Shown here one piece after another: positions 10,920 through 33,443 of a stretch of 64,000 bases of DNA. Source of the DNA: a virus. Lineage: Duplodnaviria > Caudoviricetes. A model generated the notes under the pieces. It did not search any database, had not been told where the DNA came from, and was given only the letters and a program-made list of their open reading frames with translations. Every line of letters starts with the position of its first letter. Position 1 is the stretch's first letter. Position numbers and translations under genes: made by a program. The stretch is taken from positions 1 through 64,000 of IMG/VR virus record IMGVR_UViG_3300005719_000002; one strand, 5' to 3'.

Positions 10920-10933
10920 GAGGAGAAACCAGC

Positions 10934-13252
10934 ATTCCCCTAACCGGACAATACCGAAGTTTTTCCCATGACTGGTTCGCGAAGCACCAAACACGGCTGC
11001 TGCGCCTGCTCAACCATCCTCTCTACAAACGATGGTTTCGTTGGGTTCTCTGCATCACTAAAGACGACGCTGGTTACGACCGTGAGATAATCCAACTCCT
11101 GCCTCACGCTTATATCTGCAAGGGTGACGACGGCAAGCTCATAGCCGACTTCCGCACCCATCCGAAGTACGCCAAGCGCATTTTTCACGCATTCAAACCA
11201 GTCTGGTTTGTGATGCACGGTTGGGACAAGATCGCCGACCCGTTAATTCCCGAATGGAGCTTCGCGCATTCTACCCTGACGAAGTATCCCGACACGGGTA
11301 ATCCGGGTGCGACGACTTGCGATGGAGATATTGTCAATAAGGGTAACACCTACTCGACGGTTCACGACAGTTCTACCGGATCGGCTATAGACAACAATGG
11401 CACTTCCTCTATAGACGTTGAAAATTCGCTCACTTCGAAATACAACATCGCCAGAGGTGTTGCAACATTTGACACATCTGCTTTAGGGTCATCTGCGTTT
11501 CTTTCTCAAGCCGACCTCTCAGGCTACGTTACCAGCCATGGAGGATCGTCATCCGACACGATAGATATCGTTTCATGGTCAGGCGGTGCGAACCAGTACA
11601 GTGTTTCTGATTACGGTTTGTTTGGTTCAACCGTCTTCGGGCAGTCGAATCCTATTCTGGGATTCGTTGATAATGCTTACAAAGACATTCCAATCAACCT
11701 CGTTACAGCGGCAGGTTACATTCAACTCAATGGTGTTACGAAGTTTGGTTGGCGCACGGATGGTGATGTAAACAGTGCGGCTCCCACAACCGACCAAGAT
11801 TTTTGTATTTTCTCCGCAGCGGAAGTTAGCGGCACCTCCCAAGACCCGAAGCTGGTCATTACCTACACGCTGTCCTCGCCCAGTGCGTCCATTTCCCCTT
11901 CAGCGTCTCGTTCACCGTCTGCTTCGGCTTCCGCGTCAATTAGTCCGTCGGCTTCCACCAGTCCATCGGCTTCCGCGTCGCCGTCACTAAGCCCATCGGC
12001 CAGTATCTCGCCCTCGGCTTCAGTAAGTGCGAGCACGTCGCCATCGTCTTCCCGCTCGCCCAGCGCCAGTATCAGTGCAAGTACTTCTCCGAGTCCGAGT
12101 ATTTCGCCTTCGGCCAGCACCTCCCCGTCGGCGTCCGCTTCGGCATCAACGTCCCCCAGCGCGTCACGCAGCCCCTCGGCTTCGGCTTCACCATCGCTCT
12201 CGCCATCAGGCAGCGTATCGCCCAGCGCCTCGGCAAGTGCATCAGTGTCGCCCAGCGCTTCGATCAGTTCATCGGCATCGCTTAGCCCGTCCGCATCGGC
12301 AAGTTTGTCGGTAAGCCCAAGCGCGAGTTTATCGCCCAGTGCGTCACTGTCCCCGTCAGCTTCGATTAGTCTATCAACCAGCCCGTCGCTCAGTCCCAGC
12401 GCGTCCTTAAGCCCGTCAGCCAGTGTCTCAGCCTCGGTGAGTCCCAGCGCGAGCATGTCGCCGTCTACTTCGTTGTCCCCAAGCGCTTCATTGTCACCGA
12501 GTGCGTCATCGTCTCCGTCGCTGTCGCCGTCGTCCAGCGTGAGTGCCAGTGTTAGTCCGTCAGGCTCACTGTCGCCCTCAGCAAGTGTGTCACTGTCTCT
12601 ATCGCCCAGCGGATCGGTCAGTGCCAGTATTTCGCCGTCAGATAGCCAGTCACCTTCAGCTTCAGTTTCGCTGTCCGTTTCACCAAGCAGTTCGGTTAGC
12701 CTCTCGATTTCCGGCTCGGTATCGCCCAGCGCGAGTGTGAGTTCATCGCTAAGCCCCAGCGAGTCGGCGTCCGCCACTGCCAGTCCCAGTGCATCCAGTT
12801 CGCCATCAATGTCACCCTCAGCGAGCCGTTCGCCATCGGCCTCAGCATCGCCTTCCCCCGATCCGGGCGATCAGGGCGTGTCAATTTCGAGCTTTAGAAT
12901 TCCGTACTACCAGCGAGCAGGTGAGAAAGCCTACGTGGACATTTACTTCACCAAACCATTCAGAGACGTGGACAGCAACTATATTCCGGGCGGTGGCGGA
13001 GCCAAGCGTTCTCCGTTCTACAAGCGACTAACGTGCGCAGTAAATAAGTTCACCCATATTATCACTGTGCCTCAGTTCAACATTCCCTGCACTACTACCG
13101 GATCGGACACGGCTGTCAGGGCAGTGTTTATTTTGAGAGATTCAACCTTCAGTTTTGTGCGATACTTAAACCACTCTAAAGGCGCGTATTGGGTCGTGCC
13201 TGATACGGTGACCAGCTGGCAAGGGCTGATGCAATACAATGACACCCACTAA
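10934..13252 (+). CDS. Virion decoration/fibre protein with long central SPSAS tract; probable ATT start
   Basis: AGGAG 10921-10925 then in-frame ATT 10934. Basic/aromatic N-terminal domain, beta-rich domain, about 330 aa SPSAS tract, C-terminal domain. Confidence 0.75.
11874..12860 (+). repeat. SPSAS-coding repeat tract 2
   Basis: Protein-level tandem repeat of about 330 codons. Confidence 0.9.
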
Positions 13253-14009: not shown

Positions 14010-14807
14010 ATGTTTCAACGTATCAGAGCGGGAGTATCGCAAACGGGAGAAGGTTTTGTCGTCCCCAGCCCCGGCTCGCCTTCGCTTTCACCCTCAGCGA
14101 GTCTCAGCCCTTCAGCCAGCGCCAGCGCGTCTCTTTCACCTTCAGCCAGCCGCTCACCTTCAGCCAGTGTGTCACCGTCAGGCGGGGCGTTGCGCGGCAT
14201 TGTGTTCAACGGCACAAACCAGAATGCTTACCGCTCGCTCTCCGGCTCGCCGTGGAGTTCGATGGGTGCATTCAAAACCATCTTTCGGATGCGCAGCCTG
14301 ACAACTTCAGGTGCGCGCATTTTCCAACTGGGACAGGAGAGTGCTGGTGACGGATTCAAGCTCTCTGAGAATAGCGGACGGTTGGACTTTGTGGAGACGC
14401 GCGAGTCTGCCCAGATTTTCCATACCCCCACCGACCTGACCAACATGGTCGTTAAGGTGCAGTTCGATCCGGCGAACACCCGGTGGACATACGAATCATG
14501 GAAATCGGATGGAACAGGTTACGTTTCCGGCACGGTGGCGATGACCGACGCGAGTAACTACAACATTGACAGCTTCTCGTGCGGCGCGAGCGTCTTTAAC
14601 GCATTCAACGGGGACGCGCACTTTGACTGGGTGGGTATTCAGTCGGGTGTTGATGCGTTAGGGTCGGGCAATTTCCCCGGTGCTGAACCCCCGGCAGGCA
14701 CCTATCTCGCCCTGTGGAAGTTTGACGCTGACGACGGCACCGACTCGTCAGGAAACAGTTTGACGCTTACGTTGCATAATTCACCAACATTTGAGAACAC
14801 ACCATAA
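14010..14807 (+). CDS. LamG/concanavalin-A-like virion protein with N-terminal SPSAS tract
   Basis: SPSAS tract then GIVFNGTNQ... and LWKFDADDGTDSSGNSLTLT, typical LamG terminal strands. Confidence 0.65.
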   Translation: MFQRIRAGVSQTGEGFVVPSPGSPSLSPSASLSPSASASASLSPSASRSPSASVSPSGGALRGIVFNGTNQNAYRSLSGSPWSSMGAFKTIFRMRSLTTSGARIFQLGQESAGDGFKLSENSGRLDFVETRESAQIFHTPTDLTNMVVKVQFDPANTRWTYESWKSDGTGYVSGTVAMTDASNYNIDSFSCGASVFNAFNGDAHFDWVGIQSGVDALGSGNFPGAEPPAGTYLALWKFDADDGTDSSGNSLTLTLHNSPTFENTP

Positions 14808-14810
14808 ATC

Positions 14811-16835
14811 ATGCCATCCCCAAACCCACCAACAAATCTGGTCTGCACCAACGGCGGCGCAAACGATATTGTTTTGGCATGGACGGATAACTCGTCCGAT
14901 GAAACAGGGTTCAGGATTGAGCGCAAGCTGGGTGTCAGTGGATCGTATTCGGAAATCGACACGGTAGGTGCAAACGTTACCGGCTACGTTGACACGTCTT
15001 CCAAGACAGCCAACCGTCCGTATATCTACCGCGTGCGCGCTTATAACGGTTCCGGCAATTCGGCCTACTCAAATGAAGACGACGCCACCACGCCCTATGC
15101 GGGTACGGTTCCCAACTACAAGACCGACACCGCGAACTACGTAGACGTTGAGAAGACCATCACCGATGCAACGAACGCGACCCCGATTGTCATCACCACC
15201 AGCACGACGCACGGCCTCTCCACAGGCGATCTGATTCGCATATCAAAGGTTCTGGGTAACGATGCGGCCAATGGGCTGTGGCGCGTTACGGTGCTGAGCA
15301 CCACCACGTTTAGTCTCGACAACAGTGTCGGCACTGGCGCGTTCAGTTCCAGTCCGGCAGCGCGGGTATTTGCCAACTTCCCTGTGCCTCTACCGTTGGC
15401 TGGCGGGAAGTTCTACGACGAAATGTTCGGTACACAGGTAATGCGGTTTACGGACGAGTCGGACGGGGATTATTTCGGCACGGCTTACTCAGTATGGCCG
15501 ACATTCAACTGCGACAACACGCGGGTCTATTTGCAATCAGGGGGTGGTTGGGCATTAGGTGAATTCAACCCAACGACCTTCCGCCGCTCTGGAGCGCTTC
15601 ACTCAATCCCGAATGCACCGTTTACCAACTATGCCCACTACGAGTCAGCCTTCTGGAGTTTTACCGATCCCAATAAATTGTTCATTCTGGTTGATGCCAA
15701 AATCTACTACTACAGCCCCTTAACCGACACCTACACGCTCGTCAAGGACTTGCAGAGCTACTTCGGAGCGGGGTGGTTTTTCAATCAGCTTTATGTGAGC
15801 AGCAATGACAATCGTTTTGGGTTCAACACATGGAACGGGTCAGGTAATCAGGGCTTTGCGGTGTATGAACTGTCCACCGACACTCTGAAACTCGACGTGC
15901 GCAACACCGATGTCAACGGCATCACGATGGACAAGTCCGGCCAGTATGTGTTGTTTGTTACCGACTCTCTTGGTTATTACACCCAGTACATCTACTCCGT
16001 GGACGCTGGAACCTTTGAGACTCTTATCTCAGACGTGAACACCGGACTGCCGGATTTTGGCATAGGGCACAACGATGCCGGTCAGAGCGTGATTGTGGGA
16101 GCGGATCAATGGAATGGTGGGTTTAGTTTCCGTAACATGGGTACGCCACACACGGTGAGCCACCCATTCACCTACGCCCCCTACTGGTTTAATTTTCACC
16201 TCTCAATGCGTGCTGATAACGATGAGTGGGTGCTGGTCGGCACCTACGGCGATACTGGCGTGTCCGCCGCACCGCCGAAGTATTATCAGGAGCTTTTCCA
16301 GACAAACAACACAAACGGTTCCCTCAGGCGGCTGGTTCACGGTAATTCCAACTATCAAGCCAACGTGTTCCTTTGTCCCACCTGTCCGGTAACTGTGACG
16401 GGTGCGACCAACGCAACGCCTATAGTTATTGCTACCTCCGGCCCGCATCGGATGCTGACAGGGATGCGCCCGCAGATTTCCGGCATTGGCGGGAACACAG
16501 CAGCGAATGGCACGTGGACAGCGACGGTCATTGATGCGACACACTTTAGTTTAGACGGCAGCACTGGCAACGGGGCTTACACATCCGGTGGGCAGGTTTA
16601 CGCGGAGATGTACTGGGACACGCCGCGTGCGAACATGAGCCGTGATGGTAAGTTTATCGCGTGGACTTCCAACTGGAACGGAGTTCCCGGTGGTGGGCGC
16701 AGGGACTTGTTCATCGCGCAGGTTGATCCGGTCAACCCGTCCGCGTCCCCTAGCCCATCGGCGTCGCTTAGTCCTTCAGCGTCCGCGTCACCGTCGGCAG
16801 GCAGTAGTTTGAAGTTGATTGCTTTGTGTGGCTAG
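14811..16835 (+). CDS. Putative receptor-binding protein: FN3 + two TNATPIV beta modules + beta-propeller + SPSAS tail
   Basis: FN3 motif LAWTDNSSDETGFRIER...YIYRVRAYN...SAYSNE; duplicated TNATPIVI..H....G....ISxVxGNxAANG.W modules; propeller-like ANMSRDGKFIAWTSNW. Confidence 0.7.
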   Translation: MPSPNPPTNLVCTNGGANDIVLAWTDNSSDETGFRIERKLGVSGSYSEIDTVGANVTGYVDTSSKTANRPYIYRVRAYNGSGNSAYSNEDDATTPYAGTVPNYKTDTANYVDVEKTITDATNATPIVITTSTTHGLSTGDLIRISKVLGNDAANGLWRVTVLSTTTFSLDNSVGTGAFSSSPAARVFANFPVPLPLAGGKFYDEMFGTQVMRFTDESDGDYFGTAYSVWPTFNCDNTRVYLQSGGGWALGEFNPTTFRRSGALHSIPNAPFTNYAHYESAFWSFTDPNKLFILVDAKIYYYSPLTDTYTLVKDLQSYFGAGWFFNQLYVSSNDNRFGFNTWNGSGNQGFAVYELSTDTLKLDVRNTDVNGITMDKSGQYVLFVTDSLGYYTQYIYSVDAGTFETLISDVNTGLPDFGIGHNDAGQSVIVGADQWNGGFSFRNMGTPHTVSHPFTYAPYWFNFHLSMRADNDEWVLVGTYGDTGVSAAPPKYYQELFQTNNTNGSLRRLVHGNSNYQANVFLCPTCPVTVTGATNATPIVIATSGPHRMLTGMRPQISGIGGNTAANGTWTATVIDATHFSLDGSTGNGAYTSGGQVYAEMYWDTPRANMSRDGKFIAWTSNWNGVPGGGRRDLFIAQVDPVNPSASPSPSASLSPSASASPSAGSSLKLIALCG

Positions 16836-17152: not shown

Positions 17153-19783
17153 TTGGCAACTAAACTTTACTTAGAATCGACCGCGTTCTCGCCCATCACG
17201 CCGACGCCTAACGCCGGTTGGACGGACACGACGCAGTTTGCCCGCTTCGCGGCTGGCACAACCAAGCTGAGTTCCACGATGACGACGCGCAGTTGCACGT
17301 CAGCCATCTCCACTCAGGCCGACATTATTCTCTGCCAGTTTATTTCACACCCGCTGGATGCAGGCCAGACGATTACCGGCGGGCAAAACATTTCGATTGT
17401 AATGCGCGAGGCGGAGACTGCCGCCACTAACAACCTCTTTTTCACTTGGGCAGTCTACATTTTCAACGGCTCAACACTTCAGAAAACCCTCATTGCCAAG
17501 CGTCAGGATGGCACTGAGCAGACCTCCGCTACCTTAACCACCCGCAGCGCCACGGTTGCGAGTGTGGCGGGTAACTACACCACCGTTGCGGGGGATCGAA
17601 TTGTTATTGAGGTTGGATTGAACGGCGACCCCGGCGGCACGAGCAACCACAATGGATCGGTTAGTCACGGATCGGATTCAGGTTCGGATTTGGCTATTTC
17701 AGATGGCGTTACGACCGCTAATAATCCCAACCTGAACCTCACCGACACGCTGACGTTTAATACGATTTCCCCTTCAGCTTCGCTCAGTCCAAGTGCATCG
17801 CTGAGTCCAAGTGCATCCTTGTCCCCCTCGGCAAGTCTCAGCCCCAGCGCCAGTGTTTCACCCTCACTCAGTCCATCAGCGAGTTTAAGCCCCTCTGCCA
17901 GTTCGTCACCTTCTCTGAGTCCATCAGCCAGCCTGTCACCGTCTGCGAGTCGTAGTCCCAGTGCCAGTATCTCGGCATCGGTCAGCCCCTCTGCGAGCTT
18001 GTCCCCATCCGCCAGCCTCAGCCCTTCGGCAAGCAGTTCGGCGTCGTTAAGTCCGTCAGCAAGTATCAGTCCAAGTTCCAGCGCAAGTCCCAGCGTGTCG
18101 GCAACGCCACCGATATTTATCGAAGGGCAGAATGTCGATCCATTCTTCATTGAACACTTTCTGTTCTATGAGACACAGCCCTTGCTGGGAATTCCGGGGT
18201 TGTCGCCAAGTGCTTCAGTCAGTCCATCAGCAAGTATTTCGGCTTCAATTAGTCCCAGCGCCAGTCTCAGCCCCTCGGCGTCTTTGAGTCCGAGCGCGAG
18301 TGTGTCAGCTTCAGTCTCCCCCAGTGCGAGCATTAGCCCATCAGCTTCAGCCTCACCAAGTCTCTCACCATCCGCGTCGCTGAGTCCTTCTGCGAGTGAG
18401 TCGCCTTCGATTTCTCCGTCCGCGTCTTTAAGCCCCAGCGCTTCCGTGTCGGCCAGCGTGTCGCCCAGTCCGTCGCTGTCGCCTTCAGCGTCGCTCTCGC
18501 CCTCTGCCAGTGTCTCCGCGTCGTTATCGCCTTCGGCGAGTCTAAGTCCGAGTGCTTCACAATCTGCGAGCCTATCCCCTAGCGCGTCATTGTCACCTTC
18601 GGCGTCCCTTTCACCGTCCGCGAGTGCATCAGCCTCAGTGTCCCCGTCGGCGAGTCTCAGTCCCAGCAGCAGCGCATCGCCGTCTTTGTCGCCATCTGCG
18701 TCTCTGTCACCAAGCGCATCGCCGTCACCATCGGCCAGTGTTAGCGCGAGCGTATCTCCCAGTGCTTCGTCCAGCGCCAGTTCGTCGCCGTCACTTTCTC
18801 CGAGTGCCAGCGCGTCACCATCGTCCAGCGCCAGTCCTAGTTCCGGTCTGACTCCGGCCATCTTCGTCTACGGCCAAAACGTCGATCCGTTTTTCATTCA
18901 GCACTTCATTCCGCTGATTGTTAATTCGCTGTTCGTTGCTGAGCAGCCATCGCCATCCGCTTCGCTTAGCCCCAGTGCCAGTCAGTCACCCAGCGCCAGC
19001 GCCAGTCCCAGCCCTCCGGCTGCGCCGCCTGTGTTCGTCTATGGTCAGAATGTTGATCCGTTCTTCATCCAGAAGTTCATCCCGCTGATTGTCAACTCTC
19101 TATTCGCGATTGAAATCACGGCATTCTCACCGAGCGGTAGCCAGAGTCCATCCGCTTCCGCGTCAGCATCGCTGTCTCCGTCGCGGTCGTTGAGTCCCAG
19201 TGCATCGCTTAGTGCCAGCCTGTCTCCCAGTGCGAGTTTGTCACCTTCAGCCTCGCTCAGCCCAAGTGCCAGCGCTTCGCCGTCTCGTTCGCCGTCAGCT
19301 TCTCTAAGTCCCAGTGCAAGTGTCTCCGCATCGCGCTCACCCAGTGCCTCACGGAGCGCATCTCTTAGCCCTTCAGCATCCATCAGCCCATCAGCCAGCG
19401 GGTCGGTCAGTCCTTCCCCATCGGTCAGCCCGTCAGCATCAATCAGCGCTTCGGCGTCAATCTCGCCATCGCCAAGTGCCAGTGCGTCTCGTTCCCCTTC
19501 GGCATCTTTAAGCCCCTCTGCCTCCATTAGTCCCTCACTCAGCCCCAGTGCTTCTGCTTCAGCGTCTGCCAGCCCTTCGGGGTCACTGTCGGCGTCGCTC
19601 TCACCAAGTACATCCATCTCTCCGTCCGCGTCAGCCAGCCGCAGTATCTCGCCAACCTTGCCGCCGCCATTGTGCGTGACCTTTGAATTCACGCTCACAA
19701 CAAGCCAAGTGGTGTTCTCAGGAAAGACTTCTACAACAGAGTTCGATCTACACACTTCTGAAATTGACTTTGACCAATTGTAA
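17153..19783 (+). CDS. Large mucin-like virion fibre protein (N-terminal beta domain, SPSAS tracts, three GQNVDPFF nodes)
   Basis: TTG start; about 200 aa globular domain then mostly SPSAS; three conserved inserts; short acidic/hydrophobic C-terminal domain. Confidence 0.8.
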
Positions 19784-20730
19784 TGGCCGTATCCCCCTCA
19801 GCCAGTATCAGCCGCAGCCCCAGCCCGTCGGCATCGCGGTCGCCGTCAGCTTCACGCAGCCCTTCAGCCAGTAGATCGCCGTCTGCATCTGTTTCGGCGT
19901 CTCGCAGTCCGTCAGCCAGCCGTTCACCCAGTGCTTCAGTATCAGCAAGCATTTCGCCGTCGGGGAGCGCCAGCGGGTCACTCTCTCCGTCAGGGTCGGC
20001 CAGCACGAGCACTTCACCTTCAGCATCTATTAGCGCATCACAAAGCCCTTCGGGTTCAATATCAGCGTCGCTATCTCCATCCGGCTCGGTGAGCACGAGC
20101 GCGTCACCCTCGGCCTCGGTGAGTGCGTCACCCAGCCCGTCAAGCTCAGTATCCGCGTCACCATCCAGTTCAGCGAGCGCAAGTATCAGCGCTTCGTTAT
20201 CACCAAGCACGTCCAGTAGCGGGAGCGCATCACCATCAGCCTCGGTGTCCCTATCAGCCAGTGCTTCGTCATCTCAAAGCCTATCTCCCAGCGCAAGCGC
20301 ATCGGAAAGTCCGAGTCCCTCGGCTTCTGTAAGCCCATCGAGTAGCATGTCTCGCTCGCTCAGCCCTTCCAGTTCCGTCTCAGAGTCACCCAGCGCCAGT
20401 GAAAGCCCATCCGTATCCGCCAGCCCGTCAGCAGCACCAGTTTCCCCGTCGGTGTCGGTCTCACCTTCCGCCAGTGTTTCCGTTTCTCCATCTCCAAGTC
20501 CGTCGCCCTCTGAAAGCGGCAGCGTCAGTCCAAGTAACAGCCTTAGTAACTCACCGTCCCCGTCAAACGGGCCGTGGTCGCCTTCTTCGTCAATCAGTCC
20601 ATCCAGTTCAAACAGTCCCAGCGTAAGCCCAAGCAGTTCAGTCAGTCCTTCACACGTACATCAGGATTCAGGTTCGTCCTCTATAAGCCCGTCAAGTTCA
20701 TGCAGCCCTTCGCCTAGTTCTTCTCCTGGG
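17767..20730 (+). repeat. SPSAS-coding repeat tracts in the 876 aa and 316 aa ORFs
   Basis: Protein-level tandem repeat interrupted by three GQNVDPFF modules and one gene boundary. Confidence 0.9.
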
Positions 20731-20733
20731 TGA
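19783..20733 (+). CDS. Almost pure Ser/Pro/Ala repeat protein (316 aa)
   Basis: TAATG coupling; SPSxS repeats over nearly the full length with mixed TCN/AGY codons. Confidence 0.7.
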
Positions 20734-20780: not shown

Positions 20781-20924
20781 GTGAGTAAAAAACCCGTCAC
20801 CATTCAAACCTTTAGATGCCAATGCGAACGCTGCGGGTATCGGTGGGTGGCAAAGGTCAGAGAACCCAAGCGTTGCCCTAACTGTCATAATCCCAACTGG
20901 AACAGGCGGAAGAAGACGAGATGA
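20781..20924 (+). CDS. 47 aa Zn-ribbon protein (not in ORF track)
   Basis: GTG start, MSKKPVTIQTFRCQCERCGYRW...PKRCPNCHNPNWN; ATGA overlap with the GT gene; paralogue at 40271. Confidence 0.75.
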   Translation: MSKKPVTIQTFRCQCERCGYRWVAKVREPKRCPNCHNPNWNRRKKTR

Positions 20925-21892
20925 TCAAAGGTCGTGTATCAGTACTCATCCCCAGCCGCAAGGAACGCTGGCTGAACCAGACCCTAGCCGATGTGTTCGG
21001 TAAAGCGGCTGGTGATGTCGAAGCGGTCGTGTGCCACGACGGAATTTGGCCGGACGAGTTACCGCCTGAAAACGCAAAGCTCATCCAGTTTCATCCCGGC
21101 AGAAACGTCGGCATGAGAGCGGGAATCAACATGGCTGCGCGCATTGCTCAGGGTGAATACCTAATGAAACTTGACGGTCACTGTCAGTTGGGCGAAGGGT
21201 ATGATGCGATTCTCAAGGCCGATTGTGCGCCGAATTGGGTGATGATTCCACGGCGGTATTCCATTGAGGTCGGCACACCTGAAGAACCGAAATGGGAACT
21301 GCGAACCGATAAGGTGGTTGATTATCACTACCTTTCCTACCCGTTTCTCCGCAAGAACGATATCGCCTGTGGGCTGCATGGGAACATCTGGCATGAACGG
21401 CGCAAGAAGCGTCAGGATATTTTAGTGGATCGTGAAATGTCATCACAGGGGTCGTGCTACTTCGGCCACCGAGACTTCATGGAGAAGGCCATCTTTCCGC
21501 TGGATGACGAATCTTTCGGCACGTTTGCGAGCGAGATGCAGGAAGTTGGTTATCGGGCTTGTTCTAACGGCGGGCAGTTGATGGTCAATAAGAACACCTA
21601 TTACGGCCATGTTCATAAGGGCAAAGCGTGGGGTACGGGGTATAAGTTCAACACGAAAGAATGGGAGAACTGGCAACGGCAGAATAAGAAGGGTCACGAC
21701 CACGCAATCATTCAGCTTCTCTCGAATCGACCGCTGGCCGAGAAGTTAATCAACGAGTTCTGGCCTGTACCCGAATGGCCGGAGAAAAACGGTGGGTGCA
21801 ACTGGGGTAAAGTCTATGCAGACTTTGCCGAATGGAAAGCAGAAACCTACGGCAAGGAACCGCCGATGAGTTGGTTGGAAAAGGGGGCATGA
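20921..21892 (+). CDS. GT-A glycosyltransferase (GT2/GT27 ppGalNAc-T-like)
   Basis: VSVLIPSR, GMRAGIN, YLMKLDGHC (DxH), EMSSQGSCYF...FGTFASEMQEVG...GGQLMVN...GHVHK. Confidence 0.85.
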   Translation: MIKGRVSVLIPSRKERWLNQTLADVFGKAAGDVEAVVCHDGIWPDELPPENAKLIQFHPGRNVGMRAGINMAARIAQGEYLMKLDGHCQLGEGYDAILKADCAPNWVMIPRRYSIEVGTPEEPKWELRTDKVVDYHYLSYPFLRKNDIACGLHGNIWHERRKKRQDILVDREMSSQGSCYFGHRDFMEKAIFPLDDESFGTFASEMQEVGYRACSNGGQLMVNKNTYYGHVHKGKAWGTGYKFNTKEWENWQRQNKKGHDHAIIQLLSNRPLAEKLINEFWPVPEWPEKNGGCNWGKVYADFAEWKAETYGKEPPMSWLEKGA

Positions 21893-21977
21893 TGATTATC
21901 TTCTGGATTTCCCTTGTAGTGGTGGCAATGGCAGTACTTATTTGGCTAGGCAGCAAAACAGCAAAGGAGCAAAATCG

Positions 21978-22250
21978 ATGGCGTTAGACGAAGTAATCGA
22001 CACAGAAGCAGTGGTGAAAAGTTTCTCACCGCGTCCGACAAAGCCGGTGACAATGGACTTTCCTGACGCGATGCGGGAGGTGATCGCGGGGAAGAAGATC
22101 GCTAAGTTGGAGTGGGCGGAGAAGGGCGAGCCGGAGTGCTATGCATTGCTCAACGCCGGAATGCTGCAAATCTTTCGTGGGGCAAGTTTCCATGCGTGGA
22201 ATGTCTCTGATGGGGATTTAGCGGGTGAGGATTACATTGTGGTCAAATGA
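21978..22250 (+). CDS. Tad2-like (DUF2829) anti-defence nucleotide sponge
   Basis: AAGGAG SD with ATG 21978; MDFPDAM...GKKIAKLEW and W.VSDGDLAGEDYIVV match the DUF2829 consensus F..A...L..GKKV.R..W / W.PS..DL.A.DW.IV. Confidence 0.7.
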   Translation: MALDEVIDTEAVVKSFSPRPTKPVTMDFPDAMREVIAGKKIAKLEWAEKGEPECYALLNAGMLQIFRGASFHAWNVSDGDLAGEDYIVVK

Positions 22251-22888
22251 ACCGCACCCTCCAATTCATCGCTGACAAGTTCGGCGTAGACCTGAACGCT
22301 CGGTGCCCTATCGCGCTGCCAATCAGCCGTCATGGGCTAGCCAAGTTGTTTGCTGACTTAGGATTCAAGCACATCGTGGAGATTGGTGTCGAGAAAGGAC
22401 TGTACACAAAAGCCCTTGCCAAATTCAACCCGCAAGCAACCATCTACGCTATCGACGCTTGGCACCCGATCAAAGGCTATCGTGACCACGTAAACCGAGA
22501 CAAGCTCCAGAGGTTTTACGAGATCAGCAAGGAACGTCTCGCACCGTTTCCGAACGTGAAAATCATCCGGCAGCTTTCACTGGATGCGGTGAGGGATTTT
22601 AACGACAAGTCACTGGATGCTGTTTATATCGATGCCGATCACTGTTTTCAGTCAGTTACAAATGACATCTGTGAGTGGGGTAAAAAAGTTAAAGCAGGTG
22701 GCATTGTTGCAGGTCACGACTTTGCCCACTTAAACAAAGGTAATGCCCTGATGCACGTTAAGTATGTCGTTGAGGGCTATACGCGCTGTTACGACATTTA
22801 CCCGTGGTTTCTGACCAATACCGACGAGGAAGAACCGGAAGCGGACAGTCTTAAGACTAATCGAAGTTTCTTGTGGGTTAAGCAGTGA
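22247..22888 (+). CDS. Class I SAM-dependent methyltransferase (Methyltransf_24-like)
   Basis: VEIGVEKG, YAIDAW, LDAVYIDADH, KKVKAGGIVAGHDF. Confidence 0.9.
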   Translation: MNRTLQFIADKFGVDLNARCPIALPISRHGLAKLFADLGFKHIVEIGVEKGLYTKALAKFNPQATIYAIDAWHPIKGYRDHVNRDKLQRFYEISKERLAPFPNVKIIRQLSLDAVRDFNDKSLDAVYIDADHCFQSVTNDICEWGKKVKAGGIVAGHDFAHLNKGNALMHVKYVVEGYTRCYDIYPWFLTNTDEEEPEADSLKTNRSFLWVKQ

Positions 22889-23520
22889 TTGTTGGAGTTC
22901 TTTACGTTACCTCGAACCGAGAGCGCCCTGAATTCGAGGAGAAGATAAAGGCCAGCCTGTTGACCGTTATTGGAGATCGACCCTTGGTGAGCGTATCACA
23001 ACAACCGATAAATTTTGGTCGGAACATCTGCGTGGGTGACATTGGACACTCCTACTACAGCGCCTTCCGGCAAATGGTTGTTGGCGCAGAATCCATGACG
23101 GAGGACTATGTAGCCATTGCCGAGTCCGACCAGCTCTACCCACCCGACTATTTCACTTTTGAGCCAGCCGGAGAAGACCTGTACCTGCATGACAGTGTGT
23201 ATGTAATCAAATCCTTCAAACCCGACCAGTATCAGCAAAAGCGCTGGGGTGACTGGATTTCCGTGGTGAAGCGAGAGTATCTGATTGCCTGCGCCAAAAG
23301 CTACCTTAGCAAAAAGAAGACGCGCGTGTCACTGTTTGGGCTTCATGGGTTGAAAGACGTGAAGCATTGGAAACACGGATTACCCGTGGTGAGCTTCAAG
23401 ACGCGGCAGAATGTCAGTCTTAACACCGAGACATTAGTGGACACGGGCGAGGTAGAAGCGGTCGCAGAACTGCCTTACTGGGGTAAGGCTCGCGATCTGT
23501 TTAGGAAGTACGTGAAATGA
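22885..23520 (+). CDS. GT-A-like protein, ExD family paralogue A
   Basis: LVSVSQQPINFG.NI.VG, YVAIAESDQLYPPDYFTFEP; homologous to 25609 and the C-terminus of 26588. Confidence 0.7.
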   Translation: MIVGVLYVTSNRERPEFEEKIKASLLTVIGDRPLVSVSQQPINFGRNICVGDIGHSYYSAFRQMVVGAESMTEDYVAIAESDQLYPPDYFTFEPAGEDLYLHDSVYVIKSFKPDQYQQKRWGDWISVVKREYLIACAKSYLSKKKTRVSLFGLHGLKDVKHWKHGLPVVSFKTRQNVSLNTETLVDTGEVEAVAELPYWGKARDLFRKYVK

Positions 23521-24191
23521 AGGTGTGCGTAATCAGCGCCTCGCTTGGTAACTACGATGTCGAACATCCGTGGGCAGAGCAAATTGTTCCTGATGGCGTC
23601 GAAGTAGAAATCCACCGGCTCAACGATTCTAATTTCCCGCCACGCCATAAAGCCATGACGCCTGCGTTACAGTGCGGGATACCGAAATGGCACGGTTACG
23701 AAATGTTTCCTGGTTTCGACTGGTATCTCTGGATAGACGCGAGTTGCGCGCTCACCAGAGGCAACGAAGTGCATCTGTGGCTGTGTGAAGCCGATGCGTT
23801 CAACTTGGCAGGTTACTACGACATCGCACTGTTCAAACACCCTGAGCGGAAGACTATTCAGCAAGAGTATGAATTTATCAAGGAAAAGATGGCGACGGGC
23901 AACAAGTATCTCTGTTCGCGATATGAAGGTGAATGGCTAGACGAGCAATACGAGTACGTGGCTGATATCGCTTATTATCCAGCGTTCTATGCGTCTACTG
24001 CTTTCATCTACAACCCAACGCCGCTAATTCGCAACGCGTTCAAAGAGGTTGCGTGGCAAAAATACCGCTTCATGCTGCACGATCAACTTGCCCTTGCTTA
24101 TGCACTTCGAGAACACGGGCATAGTATCAAGGTAATCAATCAGGATTATCAAAAGTCGGGGTTGATGGAGTTTGTGAGGAGTAAGAAGTAA
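23517..24191 (+). CDS. DUF616-like (TOD1/MUCI70-type) glycosyltransferase
   Basis: VISASLGNYD, DWYLWIDAS, ALFKHPER.TI.QE, HDQLALAYA. Confidence 0.75.
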   Translation: MKVCVISASLGNYDVEHPWAEQIVPDGVEVEIHRLNDSNFPPRHKAMTPALQCGIPKWHGYEMFPGFDWYLWIDASCALTRGNEVHLWLCEADAFNLAGYYDIALFKHPERKTIQQEYEFIKEKMATGNKYLCSRYEGEWLDEQYEYVADIAYYPAFYASTAFIYNPTPLIRNAFKEVAWQKYRFMLHDQLALAYALREHGHSIKVINQDYQKSGLMEFVRSKK

Positions 24192-24194
24192 CTC

Positions 24195-25397
24195 ATGCCC
24201 AATACCATCATCTTAGGAGCGGGCTTCAGTGGCCTTGCTACCGCGATCACGTCAGGTGGGACGGTCTATGAGGCAACGGATTCACCGGGCGGTCTGGGTG
24301 CGTCCTACGAAATCAACGGTTTCCGCTTTGAGCGCGGCGGGGGGCACTGGTTGTTCGGCGGCGACCCGATGGTAACGGCGTTTATCCAAGGACTCTGCGA
24401 CATTAAGCGGTACGAGCGCAAGTCGTCCATTTATTTTCCCGATGAGGACAAGTTCTACCCCTACCCAATTCAGTCCACCCCTGAGTTCGCGAGCGTCATC
24501 AGTCAGGAGACAGGCGGTGAGTACGGTCAACCCATCGTGACCATAAAAGACGACTTGCGGCATCGGTTCGGCACGACCATGTGTGAGAAGTTTTTCTTTC
24601 CATTCAACGACCTCTATACCGCAGGACTCTACGACAAGGTTGCTCCGCAGGACGCTTACAAAAGTCCGCCGATTGGCAACAAGGGCTACAACGAGACGTT
24701 TATCTATCCGGTGCAGGGGTTGGGGCATTTGGCACGTCGCATGGCCGCACGGTGTGAGGTGAGGTTCAACAAGCGAGCAAAGTGGATTGATACCAGAGAG
24801 AAGATGGTTCATTTCGAGGATGATACCTGTCAAGGGTATGGCAAGTTAGTTTCCACGTTGCCGCTGAACCGCATGATGGTGATGACAGGATTGCAACCAG
24901 ACAATGACGCCAGCGATCCTGCTGTATCGGTTGCTGTGTATAACATCGCTGCTAAAAGAGGTAAAAACTGTCCTAGTGACCAATGGGTTTACACGCCGAA
25001 TAGTGATGCGGGTTTTCATCGAGTCGGGTTCTATAGCAACGTGGATAAGATACTTGCTCCGTTTGGCAAGCAAGACACCCATGTAAGTATGTACGTTGAA
25101 TCTGCGCACAAATACGATCCGCACGCCAGCAATGGCTTAGTAAGTGAGTGGTCAAATGAAAGCGCCGTAATTTGGACGCTTCAGGAGTGGGGCTGGATAG
25201 AAGATACCGAGGTAGTAGATCGTACTGACGTAGAAATCGCCTACACCTACTGCCGACCGGAAAGCACATGGCGAGAGGATGCGATTGCGTTGCTCAAGCA
25301 GCACGACATCACCTGTGTTGGGCGATTTGCCGAGTGGCGGTTTTGCGGAATCGTTGAGTCTATGCGGAGAGGGTTTGAAGCGGGGGTAAATTTATGA
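24195..25397 (+). CDS. FAD-dependent oxidoreductase, UDP-galactopyranose mutase-like
   Basis: IILGAGFSGL, E...PGGL..S...GFRFE.GGGHW, YPIQ, GRFAEWRF. Confidence 0.75.
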   Translation: MPNTIILGAGFSGLATAITSGGTVYEATDSPGGLGASYEINGFRFERGGGHWLFGGDPMVTAFIQGLCDIKRYERKSSIYFPDEDKFYPYPIQSTPEFASVISQETGGEYGQPIVTIKDDLRHRFGTTMCEKFFFPFNDLYTAGLYDKVAPQDAYKSPPIGNKGYNETFIYPVQGLGHLARRMAARCEVRFNKRAKWIDTREKMVHFEDDTCQGYGKLVSTLPLNRMMVMTGLQPDNDASDPAVSVAVYNIAAKRGKNCPSDQWVYTPNSDAGFHRVGFYSNVDKILAPFGKQDTHVSMYVESAHKYDPHASNGLVSEWSNESAVIWTLQEWGWIEDTEVVDRTDVEIAYTYCRPESTWREDAIALLKQHDITCVGRFAEWRFCGIVESMRRGFEAGVNL

Positions 25398-25618
25398 TTC
25401 CTATAATAGTACACATCAACGCTGGGCATGAATTTTGCGATGACGAAGAAAGGCGATGTCACTTTTACAAGTCTAGCGACATATCGATGGCTTCTCAGTG
25501 TGATGCCCATTGCAAATTGTTCGCTGTGGACTTGCGAGAGGTGTTCAATGAGAGGGGTCAAATCCTGCACGCCAAACGCCACGATTTGTGTGTCATCGCT
25601 GAAAAGTTATGTCCCTAG
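25394..25618 (+). CDS. Small Cys/His-rich hypothetical protein
   Basis: ATGA overlap; 74 aa. Confidence 0.55.
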   Translation: MIPIIVHINAGHEFCDDEERRCHFYKSSDISMASQCDAHCKLFAVDLREVFNERGQILHAKRHDLCVIAEKLCP

Positions 25619-26304
25619 CTATCCTATTCTACAGTGCTAACCAAAAGCCCGAACCTTTCGCCTCCAAGGTGCGCGCATCTCTACTCGACACAATAGGCGA
25701 CCTGCCGCTCGTCTCCGTCACGCAAGGCGAATTAGACTTCGGCCAAAACATCAACGTCGGACAAATCGGTGCGTCCACCTACAACTGCTACAAGCAAATT
25801 CTTATTGGGGCGCAAGCGGCCACCACGCGGTTCATCGCCTGTGCCGAGGACGACGTTCTCAGCCCTGTCGAACATTACCAGTTTCGCCCTCCCCGCGACG
25901 ACACTTTCTACTACGATAAAAACCGCTGGTGGGTGGAGCTAAACGACCGGAAGCCTCGTTACCGCTGGCGCAACCGCACGGTAATGTCCACCTGTGTCTG
26001 CAACCGTGAATTGTTCATCGAATGGGCAGAGAGGCTGTTTAAGAAGTTCCCCAAGGAACCGACTAGGGAGGGGATGACGGGCTGGGCGGAGCCGGGAAGG
26101 TACGAAACCTACCTCAAACTTCCGCAGGTAAAGATTAGCTTTTTCAGCAGTCAATACCCAATGCTGACGTTTAACACCAAGCCGTCTCTGGGTGGTGTTA
26201 GAAGGCCGCAGTCAACTGACACGACCTGTAACTACTTAGAACCTTGGGGATTCGCCAGTGACGTTTGGGAGAAATATATAGCCAGTGGGGCTGAAAGCGG
26301 CTAG
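25609..26304 (+). CDS. GT-A-like protein, ExD family paralogue B
   Basis: LVSVTQGELDFGQNINVG, FIACAEDDVLSPVEHYQFRPPRDDTFYY. Confidence 0.7.
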   Translation: MSLAILFYSANQKPEPFASKVRASLLDTIGDLPLVSVTQGELDFGQNINVGQIGASTYNCYKQILIGAQAATTRFIACAEDDVLSPVEHYQFRPPRDDTFYYDKNRWWVELNDRKPRYRWRNRTVMSTCVCNRELFIEWAERLFKKFPKEPTREGMTGWAEPGRYETYLKLPQVKISFFSSQYPMLTFNTKPSLGGVRRPQSTDTTCNYLEPWGFASDVWEKYIASGAESG

Positions 26305-26347
26305 AATGTCCTGACAACTGAATAGGCCACATCCCCAGAGGATCAAC

Positions 26348-26393
26348 CACCGTTTAGTTTCGAGTTATCGCAACTTGAAATTGGCGGTGTTTT
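26348..26393 (+). terminator. Long imperfect hairpin followed by a T-tract
   Basis: CACCG..TTTCGAGTT-ATCGC-AACTTGAAA..CGGTG then TTTT. Confidence 0.45.
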
Positions 26394-26409
26394 CATTTAG
26401 GAGGGGCTT

Positions 26410-26577
26410 ATGTTCATAACGCAATGTGTAGGCCGTCGCAAGCTGGAATGGCGGTTACAAGCCGACGGGAGTTACAGGGTAGACATTAAGCTGAAGGATA
26501 CCCGATTAGCCACTCTGATCATCGACAAGGCCGAAGCGAGCAAACTGCGCGCTCGAATGGTGAAGCATTCGAAGTAG
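26410..26577 (+). CDS. 55 aa hypothetical protein (not in ORF track)
   Basis: AGGAGG SD, ATG 26410, TAG 26575-26577. Confidence 0.6.
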   Translation: MFITQCVGRRKLEWRLQADGSYRVDIKLKDTRLATLIIDKAEASKLRARMVKHSK

Positions 26578-26587
26578 GAGGTAACTT

Positions 26588-28294
26588 ATTCCTTACGACC
26601 TCTCGGTTTTGATCCCCGCTCGTAACGAGGAATTCCTCGCCCGTACCGTTGAAGGCGTTCTTGCTGCGCGGGAAGCAAAAACCCAAGTTTGCGTGATCGC
26701 GGACGGCGCTTGGCCTGACCCTCCGCTCCCTGTTCATCCTGACGTAACAATCATTCATCACTCGAAGTCTATTGGGCAACGGGCAGCTTGCAATGAAGGT
26801 GCGCGGCTGTCTGAAGCCAAGTACATAATGAAGCTGGATGCGCACTGCATCATGGATCAGGGATTTGACCGGAAGCTGATTGAGGACGCCCAGCCCGACT
26901 GGACGGTCATTCCCAGCCAGTACAACCTCTACGCCTTCGACCGTCTCTGCAAAGACTGTGGACACGAAGCCTACCAAGGCCCAACGGTATGCGAGAAGTG
27001 CGGCTCGAAGAACGTGGAGAAAGTGATCGTGTGGCAACCGCGCGATGGGCGGGTAATTAACGGCAAGAACATGGGCAAGCGGCTTACCGAAGCGTGGGCG
27101 TTTGATCGCGAGTTGCACTTTCAGTATCACGGGGAAATAGCCGCAAGACAGCAAGGCGATCTAATTGAAACCATGTCGTTACTGGGAGCCTGCTGGTTTC
27201 TGGAACGAGAACGGTATTGGGAGTTGGGCGGCAGCGACGAGGAGCATGGCTCATGGGGACAGCAAGGCACGGAGATAGCCTGCAAGTCATGGCTGTCGGG
27301 TGGGAAGGTAATCGTTAACCGCAAGACATGGTTTGCCCATATGTTCCGCACTCAAGGCGGCGACTTCGGGTTTCCATACCCGAACACTTCGGTTCACAAA
27401 GCGCGGGAACACTCCAAGTGGCTGTGGAAGGGCAACAACTGGCCGCTGGCTAAGTATCCCCTATCGTGGCTGGTGGAGAGGTTCATGCCGCTGGGGTCGT
27501 GGTGGAGCCAGGAAGACCTTGACCAGCTTAAAGCGGTAGAGAAGGGTAAAGCGGTAGAGAAGGGCAAAGCGGTGGATGTCCGGCCTCCAACCAAGGGAAT
27601 CGTCTACTACTCCCATAACCAGCTTGATCCGGTCGTCGCCCAGACCGCCAGAGACGTGCTCAAGCGCGCGGTTAACGGGCACAAGATTGTTTCAGTTACA
27701 CTGGAGCCGGTAGACCTTGGGCTGAATGTCGTTCTCCGCGATAAGCAGAAGGGTTATCTAACCTATCTTGAGCAGATTCTCAAGGGACTACAGACATCGA
27801 CAGCGGACTCCTGCTGGCTGGTTGAGCATGATTGCCTCTACCCACCTGAGCATTTTGCTTTCACCCCGCCACGAGATGATCGCTATTACTACAACACCAA
27901 TGTCGTGAAGGTGCGCTGTTCGGATGGTCACGTGCTGAAGTATTCCGGCTGCTTGCAGGTGTCGGGGATGTGTGCCAGCCGCCAACTGCTCATCCAGCAC
28001 TACGAGAAGCGCATTGCGCGGTTTCACGCAGACGGTGACAAGTATGATCGTCATATCGGGTACGAGCCGGGAATGCGCCCACCGCCACGAGGGATTGACG
28101 ATTACGGATATGAGACGTGGACTTCCACAAAGCCGATTGTTGATTTGCGTGTCGAGGGAACAATGTCGAAGTCGAGGTGGACGATTGACGAGTTTCGCAA
28201 CAAGCCGAAAGAATGGTGGGAGGGTGATTATGTTGAGGGGTGGGGGCCGACCAAAGGCCGCGTATCGGAATTCCTTCAGGACTTGAGAGCATGA
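26588..28294 (+). CDS. Two-domain glycosyltransferase: ppGalNAc-T-like GT-A with Zn-ribbon insert fused to an ExD GT-A; probable ATT start
   Basis: AGGAGGT then ATT giving MPYDLSVLIPARNE; YIMKLDAHC; ELGGSDEEHGSWGQQGTEIACKSWLSGG...AHMFR; second domain WLVEHDCLYPPEHFAFTPPRDD. Confidence 0.85.
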   Translation: MPYDLSVLIPARNEEFLARTVEGVLAAREAKTQVCVIADGAWPDPPLPVHPDVTIIHHSKSIGQRAACNEGARLSEAKYIMKLDAHCIMDQGFDRKLIEDAQPDWTVIPSQYNLYAFDRLCKDCGHEAYQGPTVCEKCGSKNVEKVIVWQPRDGRVINGKNMGKRLTEAWAFDRELHFQYHGEIAARQQGDLIETMSLLGACWFLERERYWELGGSDEEHGSWGQQGTEIACKSWLSGGKVIVNRKTWFAHMFRTQGGDFGFPYPNTSVHKAREHSKWLWKGNNWPLAKYPLSWLVERFMPLGSWWSQEDLDQLKAVEKGKAVEKGKAVDVRPPTKGIVYYSHNQLDPVVAQTARDVLKRAVNGHKIVSVTLEPVDLGLNVVLRDKQKGYLTYLEQILKGLQTSTADSCWLVEHDCLYPPEHFAFTPPRDDRYYYNTNVVKVRCSDGHVLKYSGCLQVSGMCASRQLLIQHYEKRIARFHADGDKYDRHIGYEPGMRPPPRGIDDYGYETWTSTKPIVDLRVEGTMSKSRWTIDEFRNKPKEWWEGDYVEGWGPTKGRVSEFLQDLRA

Positions 28295-28659
28295 ACGTCA
28301 ACGAAAAAGCTGGTTGCACGATCAACGTGGTAATCAAGGATGAGAACAAGCAAGTGGTCATCCCTGATGCCTTTAACTACGCATTGGCAGACAAGGACTC
28401 AGGAATAGTGCTCACTTCAGGTTCCAAGTCCCCGGCCAGTTCGGTAAATATCGCCATCACCCCCAATCAGAACCGTATTCTCGATCAGGGCAAGCCAAGT
28501 GAAACCAGAGTCCTGACAGTGGTAGCGCCGTACGATGGAACCAACCAGGCAACCGGCGAGTACCAGTACAAAGTTGTTAATCTCAAAGGGGTAGATGCGA
28601 ATACGTCCACTTCGCCGTCGGCTTCGGTGTCTCCTTCGGCAAGTCCGTCGGCTGGGTAG
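28291..28659 (+). CDS. Ig-like structural protein with short C-terminal SPSAS tag
   Basis: ATGA overlap at 28291; beta-rich; ends [17 protein letters not shown]. Confidence 0.7.
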   Translation: MNVNEKAGCTINVVIKDENKQVVIPDAFNYALADKDSGIVLTSGSKSPASSVNIAITPNQNRILDQGKPSETRVLTVVAPYDGTNQATGEYQYKVVNLKGVDANTSTSPSASVSPSASPSAG

Positions 28660-32678: not shown

Positions 32679-33443
32679 TCAAAGTATTGGAGCGGCGTCG
32701 TGGAACTGCCCCACGCTCTCATTGACGGAATCAATGCGTGTCTCTCCTGACACTTCCACCGCCCGCTTGGGATAAGGCTCTAGCGGCCAAAGTAGCTGAC
32801 CTCGTAATTCTTTTCGTTCTTTCTTAGAGCCGAGGAGGTAGACGTATCGCCCCTTACGCTTTCTAGGGGCTTTAGTCATCCAGGGCTTAATCACACCAAC
32901 GCAACCAGTAATCCGCTTGCCATTGCCGTCAAAGTAATCAGGTCGAACCGCAGTCAGCCCGCAGTAAATCCAATTTGTTGCTTGGTACACCGTTCCGATT
33001 TCGCCAGCTTCAGGATCAGAAAAGGCGATAACTATTCTGTAACCGCGCTTCTCTATTTCTCTCAAGCCAAAGGCGATTAATTTACTAGCCGAGTGCGGGT
33101 GTGCCCAATGAACACAAGCACCCCTGCCTAACTGAACAACCTTCGATGTGTTGGATTGGCCTGCGACTGAGGAACCTAAGCTTGGAGGCGTCGGAGCACC
33201 GAAAACTATAACGCCGCCAAGTTTGCCATCAAAGAAAATACCAAAACAACAAACAGCAGCAGGATACATTGTTCCCAACCATTCGTATTCCTCGATAATC
33301 CCGCGTGCTGTTATGAAATCCACTTCCCTACAAACGGCCTTCTCGATAGACGTGTCAATTTCTTCCCACCATGCGCCGAACAAATTAGCAGACGCATCGG
33401 TTAAGGCTTTCTTTTCTCTTATCTGTCTTTGCCAAGCCTTCAC
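32679..33443 (-). CDS. Mom-like (GNAT-fold) adenine hypermodification enzyme
   Basis: FGIFFDGKLGGVIVFG, QLGRGAC...SASKLI, AFSDPEAGEIGTVYQATNWIYCG match the Mom family signature. Confidence 0.8.
   Translation of the reverse strand: MKAWQRQIREKKALTDASANLFGAWWEEIDTSIEKAVCREVDFITARGIIEEYEWLGTMYPAAVCCFGIFFDGKLGGVIVFGAPTPPSLGSSVAGQSNTSKVVQLGRGACVHWAHPHSASKLIAFGLREIEKRGYRIVIAFSDPEAGEIGTVYQATNWIYCGLTAVRPDYFDGNGKRITGCVGVIKPWMTKAPRKRKGRYVYLLGSKKERKELRGQLLWPLEPYPKRAVEVSGETRIDSVNESVGQFHDAAPIL

Follow-up and report, generated by a model that had tools for sequence, protein, structure and literature searches.

Mucin-type glycosylation in eukaryotes is started by the GT27/GT60 clade of glycosyltransferases (GTs), in which DxH is a clade-specific replacement of the DxD motif (PMC7185993). 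In GT27, the polypeptide GalNAc-transferases (ppGalNAc-transferases), the metal is bound by Asp209, His211 and His344 of GalNAc-T1 (PMC4202792) and by Asp224, His226 and His359 of GalNAc-T2 (PMC4432651). GalNAc-T2 recognises Pro-x-Pro acceptors by means of F280, W282 and F361, and the mutants W282A and F361A are nearly dead (Lira-Navarrete et al., PMC4432651). Here we explore two genes of an uncultured tailed phage that a preceding sequence-only reading of the DNA had singled out as carrying GT27-like catalytic motifs. The window analysed is the first 64 kb of the 75,484-bp IMG/VR virus record IMGVR_UViG_3300005719_000002, which has direct terminal repeats and is rated complete. The genes are 20921-21892, hereafter GT-A, and 26588-28294, hereafter GT-B (residues numbered from 26585); where the fold classes of the same name are meant the word fold is added. 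The closest solved relatives of GT-A and of the N-terminal domain of GT-B are GT27 ppGalNAc-transferases, and their genes lie in a block of structural genes that also encodes proteins with long SPSAS repeat tracts, the candidate acceptors.

In Gram-positive bacteria the long alternating-Ser repeats of serine-rich-repeat adhesins are O-glycosylated in the cytoplasm by a multi-GT cassette beside the substrate gene. This cytoplasmic glycosylation is the nearest bacterial analogy in function, and its cassette extends the glycan with GTs of GT-A fold such as GalT1. It differs in its initiator, the GT-B-fold GT4 pair GtfA/GtfB, and in its accessory Sec export, whereas the candidates here are GT27-like enzymes of GT-A fold and the substrates would be phage structural proteins. 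The second family of the DxH clade, GT60 (polypeptide/hydroxyproline alpha-GlcNAc-transferases; PF11397), includes Dictyostelium Gnt1, which is cytoplasmic, and the trypanosome pp-GlcNAcT; we know of no solved GT60 structure. GT60 is reported from protists and prokaryotes and shares with the phage enzymes the DxH variant of the GT-A fold core (PMC7185993). Among phages, the virion O-glycosylation of mycobacteriophages (Che8 gp108-110, Corndog, Myrna; Freeman et al. 2023, as cited by PMC12363180 and PMC12619734) is the only experimentally shown case found in the literature. The Che8-type system resembles the present one in having phage-encoded soluble GTs together with a Methyltransf_24 domain, and virion proteins decorated on appended tails. 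Its enzymes are unrelated, however: gp110 resembles GT25, gp108 joins a DxD GT2 domain to a methyltransferase, and the hhalign probabilities to the GT-A family are 30% for gp108, 2% for gp109 and 0.2% for gp110. Its acceptors are short tails at the C-terminus of capsid and tail-tube subunits, in contrast to the repeat tracts considered here, which run to 100-1000 residues. Many GT-B relatives are fusions of ~930 aa that also bear a Methyltransf_24 domain, and these and the GT2-Methyltransf_24 protein gp108 may represent a convergent coupling of glycosylation and sugar methylation.

A metagenomic homologue search yielded more than 5,867 proteins related to GT-B and 650 cluster representatives related to GT-A. 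Three alignments were made from such homologues and from the window itself: A1, the GT-B family (19 sequences); A2, the GT-A family (49 sequences); and A3, the C-terminal domain of GT-B (hereafter X domain) with its two stand-alone paralogues. Gene context was compared in 80 IMG/VR viral loci, each with a homologue 47-59% identical to GT-B; as controls, arbitrary 14-mers were used to pick two sets of viral loci, 80 in each. GT-A paralogues were surveyed inside the GT-B-anchored loci only; a related-locus search with the single GT-A protein returned no close relative, and four contigs with GT-A-family representatives are 2-7 kb long, too short to judge Ser-rich neighbours. Neither enzyme had a match in 50,697 GenBank phage records by tblastn, and the DNA of the cassette that the two genes bracket had none among deposited phages by blastn. 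Sixteen contigs from genome collections that hold a homologue belong to metagenome-assembled genomes (MAGs) labelled as many phyla (Chloroflexota, Planctomycetota, CPR, archaea) and are most likely binned phage contigs. So far, the family has been encountered nowhere but in uncultured phages and in metagenome bins. A literature search that had most subscription journals outside its reach found no published account of GT27-like enzymes in phages.

Pfam reports Glycos_transf_2 (PF00535) for the two enzymes at 27.8 and 44.4 bits (gathering cut-off 23.3), over the N-terminal ~115 residues only. This match cannot decide between GT27 and GT2, since the model also covers GT27 catalytic domains. For the second half of either enzyme, ppGalNAc-transferases were the sole matches of single-sequence phmmer searches of all PDB chains. 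The A2 profile matched Toxoplasma gondii GalNAc-T3 (TgGalNAc-T3) at 3e-18 in one stretch, positions 4-254, with GT27 as the top 14 matches, and the A1 profile matched GalNAc-T1 at 5e-12, with GT27 as the top 13; chain 8uhv, labelled 'Glycosyl transferase' in the PDB, is Toxoplasma GalNAc-T3. Bacterial GT2 structures (3bcv, 6p61, 5hea, K4CP) matched the N-terminal nucleotide-binding half only, residues ~1-100; GalT1 (PDB 5hea) is a weak match of this half for both profiles.

Comparison of folds gave the same answer. AlphaFold (AF2) models had a pLDDT of 94 for GT-A and 88 for the GT-B N-domain, and the top ~50 Foldseek matches of the GT-B model in the PDB were all GT27 (E ~1e-16). VIA-align, an alignment against all representatives that is independent of Foldseek, scored the GT-A model at Z 25.2 to GalNAc-T1 and 24.5 to TgGalNAc-T3, the next fold being WrtF at 20.5. 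For the GT-B model the values were 25.8 (GalNAc-T1; rmsd 2.7 over 261 residues) and 23.9 (TgGalNAc-T3), followed by K4CP at 17.8. The VIA alignments to GT27 cover 261-274 residues and span GalNAc-T1 residues 113-427 for GT-B, which is the whole catalytic domain, and 114-468 for GT-A. With GT27, exemplified by the enzymes of mouse (GalNAc-T1, 8v9q/1xhb), human (GalNAc-T2, 4d0t/2ffu) and Toxoplasma (GalNAc-T3, 6s22/8uhv), the catalytic domain is aligned end to end, at Z ~25. The sequence-only reading had proposed to set GT27 against GT2, and by profile and by fold the comparison came out as GT27 for both enzymes. We call them a GT27-like sister family rather than GT27 members because they have neither lectin domain nor membrane anchor and share only 13-22% identity with GT27.

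Membership of GT60 was tried and rejected. PF11397 had no match at E <= 0.1 for either enzyme and matched 0/49 family members, its only hit in a search of the whole genome was an unrelated spot below cut-off, and no GT60 structure was among the fold matches of GT-A or GT-B. Two of the 49 GT-A-family members touch Glyco_transf_7C, a Pfam model named for galactosyltransferases. In BFVD the fold neighbours of GT-A include uncharacterised proteins of uncultured Caudovirales with the UniProt name 'Glycosyltransferase, GlcNAc' (E ~1e-10 to 1e-11).

Residues equivalent to those of GalNAc-T1 and GalNAc-T2 (T1/T2) were inferred from HMMER and hhalign alignments. Both genes carry the DxH motifs noted earlier, KLDGHC in GT-A and KLDAHC in GT-B; the metal ligands D209/D224 and H211/H226 correspond to D85 and H87 in both, invariant in 49/49 GT-A and 19/19 GT-B sequences. 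The C-terminal ligand H344/H359 corresponds to H230 of GT-A (49/49; codon 21608-21610) and H252 of GT-B (19/19), an arrangement shared with GT27. Such motifs go far past what chance would produce. Hagen et al. reportedly found in 1999 that the acidic residues D310, E319 and E322 of GalNAc-T1 are essential. D310 aligns with D195 of GT-A (31/49) and the invariant D218 of GT-B, and E322/E337 with E208 (42/49) and the invariant E230. E319/E334 aligns with E205 of GT-A (47/49), and the same position of GT-B, 227, holds M, Q or V. W316/W331 is F202 in GT-A (mostly F in the family) and an invariant W224 in GT-B; N320/N335 is mostly A or P at GT-A position 206 and an invariant G228 in GT-B; R347/R362 is K233 (41/49) and an invariant R255. 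F361 of the GalNAc-T2 peptide groove is mostly His in the GT-A family (32/49) and an invariant F254 in GT-B. F280 and W282 could not be reliably aligned in GT-A and correspond, by sequence alignment alone, to the invariant F179 and Y181 of GT-B.

The GT-B stretch on which the sequence-only reading had based its parallel with the Gal/GalNAc-T motif, ETMSLLGACWF...SWGQQGTEIACKSWLSGG...AHMFR, is present at residues 195-255, and phmmer aligns residues 194-291 to GalNAc-T2 301-400. The parallel holds for D218, W224, E230, His252 and R255 and fails at the Glu319/Glu334 position. Downstream, the loop FRTQGGDFGFPYP parallels the GT27 flexible loop FRKQHPYTFPGG, a segment of the FR(K/T)... type that GT-B shares with GT27; model confidence is lowest here, with pLDDT block means of 67 and 61 across residues 251-270. 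Of the residues aligned with the groove aromatics, F179 and Y181 lie in an FDxxLxFxY segment of GT-B, of which F173, D174, F179 and Y181 are invariant in the family, with profile position 163 falling on GalNAc-T2 residue 274.

GT-A is paralogous to the N-terminal ~325 residues of GT-B, with an hhalign E of 1.8e-85 and 26% identity across 280 columns. Judged by these alignments they are not equivalent copies, and are GT27-like in complementary ways: GT-A by its Glu334 equivalent, GT-B, which is also fused to a second GT, by its Pro-pocket aromatics. On the bolder reading given below, this split may reflect a division of labour between naked-peptide and glycopeptide acceptors. UDP-GalNAc is not supported as the GT-B donor because the Glu334 equivalent has been lost, and the donor of at least this enzyme is, from its residues, probably another one. 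GT-B further differs from GT27 by a four-Cys insertion without counterpart in GT-A (hhalign), in which C122, C136 and C139 occur in 19/19 sequences and C125 in 17/19, with weak Pfam matches to Zn_ribbon_8/DZR. No GT27 alignment spans it: HMMER matches to GalNAc-T1 end at profile position 105 and restart at 163.

Residues ~338-569 of GT-B form a second, different GT-A-fold domain, the X domain, which stands where GT27 enzymes have a ricin-type lectin domain; 27560, given in the sequence-only reading, proved a good end boundary for the GT27-like part. The fusion occurs in 69/80 loci. This, with the variable Glu334 position (M/Q/V), would fit an arrangement with a single initiator, in which the other enzyme, most likely the GT27-like domain of GT-B, is a degenerate or re-purposed module that binds the (glyco)peptide and presents it to the X domain in a lectin-like manner. 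We regard this as unlikely, since invariance in GT-B extends to the DxH and the C-terminal His, to D218, E230 and R255, and to the residues on the UDP side, which suggests an active site under selection. Moreover, GT-B is the only DxH enzyme in sixteen loci, most of which still have Ser-rich genes.

The start of GT-B is unusual. The open reading frame (ORF) listing begins at TTG 26609, which truncates the first beta-strand, and 18/18 aligned homologues begin with M and 0-5 residues followed by DLSV. Between TAA 26582-26584, after which the frame opens, and DLSV there is no ATG, GTG or TTG. An AGGAGG at 26576-26581 stands six bases ahead of ATT 26588, which as a start would give M-P-Y-DLSV where homologues have M-x-Y-DLSV. 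Because of the homologue N-termini, the AGGAGG spacing and the lack of a standard start before DLSV, translation most likely begins at 26588, either at a non-canonical ATT or at an ATG misread as ATT through a base-call error; the earlier placement of the start at this position was right. Between X2, the second stand-alone X-domain paralogue, and GT-B there is an ORF of 55 codons (26410-26577) that has a start codon of its own and stops 11 nt before the ATT.

GT-A and GT-B bracket a cassette that also holds stand-alone X-domain copies, a weakly TOD1-like putative GT, a methyltransferase and an enzyme like UDP-galactopyranose mutase (UGM). The seven cassette enzymes all lack transmembrane (TM) and other hydrophobic segments and should therefore act in the cytoplasm. 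For the two GT27-like enzymes the maximal 19-residue hydropathy is 0.74 and 1.03 and the catalytic domain begins at residue ~5, so that the anchor and stem of GT27 are absent and the compartment would be the bacterial cytoplasm instead of the Golgi lumen.

In the structural block, seven gene products contain (S-P-S-A-S-x)n tracts, with 114 SPSAS pentamers in total. Ser makes up 31-52% of the tract residues, and the tracts are N-terminal, internal or C-terminal; the SPSAS tag is portable across proteins. As candidate acceptors they are Ser/Pro-rich and mucin-like, as in GT27 systems, and differ in being almost pure in Ser, not Thr. The minus strand at 17665-20210 has four long ORFs of 161-236 aa, rich in G, D, A, L and E; they read the SPSAS repeats in antisense and are almost certainly not genes.

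The pairing of enzyme and tract is conserved. A Ser/Pro tract lies within 10 kb of the GT-B homologue in 72/80 loci and is at least 100 aa long in 66/80, nearly always on the GT strand, and no control locus (0/160) has a tract of that length. Fisher's test gives p ~1e-45, a value to be read with the mutual relatedness of the GT-B loci, whose events are not independent. The GC span is 0.30-0.67 for GT-B loci and 0.27-0.73 for controls. A separate GT-A-type paralogue is present in 64 loci, and in 44 of these a Ser-rich ORF ends at most 700 nt upstream, as it does in the window. The conserved core has the order Ser-rich gene, GT-A, methyltransferase (51/80), X domain (64-70/80) and GT-B-X fusion. 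Ser/Pro tracts are also carried by 13 of the 16 MAG contigs. This context supports protein acceptors, and with them the link to the SPSAS tracts that the sequence-only reading had drawn.

The same context bears on whether the enzymes could bring about superinfection exclusion or mask a receptor by modifying a glycan of the host envelope, such as O-antigen, teichoic acid or exopolysaccharide, with the Ser-rich proteins as unrelated neighbours. Phage GTs of the envelope-modifying kind are well known, Pfam sees only Glycos_transf_2, and the second-tier folds, K4CP, WrtF and TarS/TarP, are polysaccharide and teichoic acid enzymes. GT27, however, scores 4.7 to 8 Z units above these folds, TM segments are absent, the cassette sits inside the structural-gene block, and the Ser/Pro pairing holds across the whole GC span of the loci; we consider this explanation quite improbable.

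A closer competitor, which we still think rather unlikely, has the GT27-like enzymes elongating sugar-to-sugar, with the first Ser sugar coming from an X domain or the TOD1-like protein. Beyond the two GT27-like domains, the cassette does encode no fewer than four that are GT-like; the X domain, joined to GT-B, approaches the GT27-like ones in conservation; and GT-B is without a Glu334 equivalent. Yet all characterised GT27 members transfer to Ser/Thr of peptides, GT-B retains by alignment the aromatic triad that recognises Pro-containing peptides, and GT-A directly follows a Ser-repeat gene in 44/64 loci.

On balance, we think it probable that GT-A and GT-B are protein O-glycosyltransferases acting on the SPSAS tracts. 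Several points weigh against it: identity to GT27 is low, no Ricin_B_lectin match was found by Pfam in GT-A, which ends at residue 323 after the catalytic domain, or in GT-B, whose C-terminal half is the ExD GT-A-fold domain, and GT-B has M, Q or V where GT27 has an essential Glu. GT-A has His at the Phe361 position and its groove aromatics are not reliably aligned, four other GT-like domains in the cassette could be the initiator, and the GT-B loci may share ancestry, so that co-occurrence counts are not independent. As best candidate initiators, the role given them in the sequence-only reading, the two are favoured by GT27 homology, fold and context, and share their candidacy with those four domains.

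For acceptor, initiating role, donor sugar, anomeric outcome and biological purpose we infer the following. GT-A and the GT-B N-domain would be soluble, cytoplasmic and metal-dependent, their DxH and C-terminal His resembling those of Mn2+-dependent GT27. During infection one or both would put the first sugar on Ser hydroxyls in the tracts of the seven virion-module proteins. The donor would be a nucleotide sugar, by homology a UDP-sugar, with retaining transfer. Other transferases and the methyltransferase would then extend and cap the glycan, and the outcome would be mucin-like, densely glycosylated virion stalks or coats.

If so, this would be phage virion glycosylation by a lineage of enzymes that had been known from eukaryotes alone. 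Many environmental phages would bear mucin-like stalks or coats, which could influence adsorption, particle stickiness and protection against defences or grazers; glyco-engineering would gain soluble relatives of ppGalNAc-transferases that bacteria can express; and the origin of the DxH clade (GT27/GT60) that starts eukaryotic mucin-type glycosylation would become directly testable. A bolder version, to which we assign a minor share of probability, sees a very large phage lineage, the prokaryotic-virus sister of GT27, performing true mucin-type O-glycosylation in the bacterial cytoplasm to form mucin-like bottle-brush virion domains. Mucin-type initiation would then pre-date eukaryotes or have been exchanged with them through viruses.

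Glycosylation of phage DNA (hypermodified bases) is what phage GTs often do, according to PMC12619734, which cites Pyle 2024, and the window encodes a Mom-family protein, which modifies DNA by another route. That the cassette serves this end is highly improbable: DNA glycosylation is unlikely because the complete genome has no hydroxymethylase-like gene, thymidylate-synthase homologues included, the closest relatives are protein O-GTs, and the cassette lies among structural genes. The Mom-family protein lies at 32679-33443 on the minus strand (Pfam PF25680, 4.9e-26) and implies Mu Mom-type adenine modification.

The coordinates of the enzymes, their motifs and the candidate acceptors are collected in Table 1.

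Table 1. Features of the glycosylation cassette and the SPSAS-tract proteins (window coordinates)
Feature	Position	Strand	Evidence or remark
GT-A, soluble GT27-like GT-A-fold glycosyltransferase, 323 aa	20921-21892	+	Pfam PF00535, profile A2, AF2 model
GT-A DxH metal motif D85-G86-H87, within KLDGHC (residues 83-88)	21173-21181	+	D85, H87 invariant 49/49
GT-A Gal/GalNAc-T-like motif (D195...F202, E205, E208, G217-G218) up to His230	21503-21610	+	Family conservation
GT-B N-terminal GT27-like catalytic domain, probable ATT start	26588-27559	+	Profile A1, AF2, Foldseek, VIA
GT-B DxH motif D85-A86-H87, within KLDAHC	26837-26845	+	Invariant 19/19
GT-B four-Cys zinc-ribbon insertion C122, C125, C136, C139	26948-27001	+	Family conservation, weak Pfam
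GT-B FDxxLxFxY segment (F173...F179, Y181)	27101-27127	+	Aligned to GalNAc-T2 FDWNLVFKW peptide-groove segment
GT-B Gal/GalNAc-T-like motif (D218, W224, G225, Q226, E230), His252, F254, R255, loop FRTQGGDFGFPYP	27236-27382	+	phmmer, conservation
GT-B C-terminal X domain, divergent GT-A fold, invariant ExD	27596-28294	+	Aligned to two stand-alone paralogues
X1, stand-alone X-domain paralogue	22885-23520	+	Alignment A3
X2, stand-alone X-domain paralogue	25609-26304	+	Alignment A3
SAM-dependent methyltransferase, Methyltransf_24	22247-22888	+	Pfam 1e-14; 51/80 related loci
Weak TOD1/MUCI70-like putative glycosyltransferase	23517-24191	+	Pfam E 0.031, below cut-off
UGM-like flavoenzyme	24195-25397	+	phmmer vs PDB
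316-aa protein, wholly SPSxS repeats, candidate acceptor	19783-20733	+	Ends 188 nt before GT-A
876-aa protein, four SPSAS tracts (~580 aa), candidate acceptor	17153-19783	+	
800-aa protein, 340-aa internal SPSAS tract, candidate acceptor	10850-13252	+	
265-aa protein, N-terminal SPSAS tract	14010-14807	+	
674-aa fn3/tail-protein-like protein, short C-terminal SPSAS tag	14811-16835	+	Weak PHROG major tail protein, Pfam fn3
187-aa protein, 100-aa C-terminal SPSxS tail	1690-2253	+	
139-aa protein, short C-terminal SPSAS tag	28240-28659	+	Overlaps GT-B 3' end, extends downstream

The X domain exists in three paralogous copies (X1, X2 and the GT-B C-terminus) of ~210-230 aa, with an invariant ExD and a GT-A-like N-terminal strand. 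Sequence searches of Pfam, PHROG and the PDB gave no match, and profile comparison does not link it to the GT27-like families. Its GT-A fold is drawn from one structure comparison, in which an ESM Atlas model of X2 has a TM score of 0.6-0.7 to GT2 proteins, and on this model the domain looks like an undescribed glycosyltransferase family.

From its sequence the methyltransferase is a probable sugar O-methylase. A full TOD1/MUCI70 family match adjoins a GT-A homologue on another contig (L219). The flavoenzyme is of eukaryote type, matching Trypanosoma cruzi UGM at 5e-11 and fungal (Aspergillus) UGMs at ~1e-6 in the PDB; this homology suggests that it supplies a furanose donor and that the glycan contains furanose sugars. 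None of the 80 related loci has its gene, which marks it as an accessory of this phage in particular; both it and the TOD1-like gene lie outside the conserved core.

The cassette also includes a small protein like Tad2 (Thoeris anti-defence 2) at 21942-22250 (E 3e-4, 21.6 bits, cut-off 25), a homologue of which is found near the cassette in 11/80 related loci. Among the tract proteins, the 674-aa one also has an E1_FCCH-like domain. Elsewhere in the window, 41389-42597 encodes a ParB-like nuclease/partition protein, and the large protein of 61483-63999, whose frame is still open where the window ends, has at its N-terminus a domain like lytic transglycosylases/endolysins.

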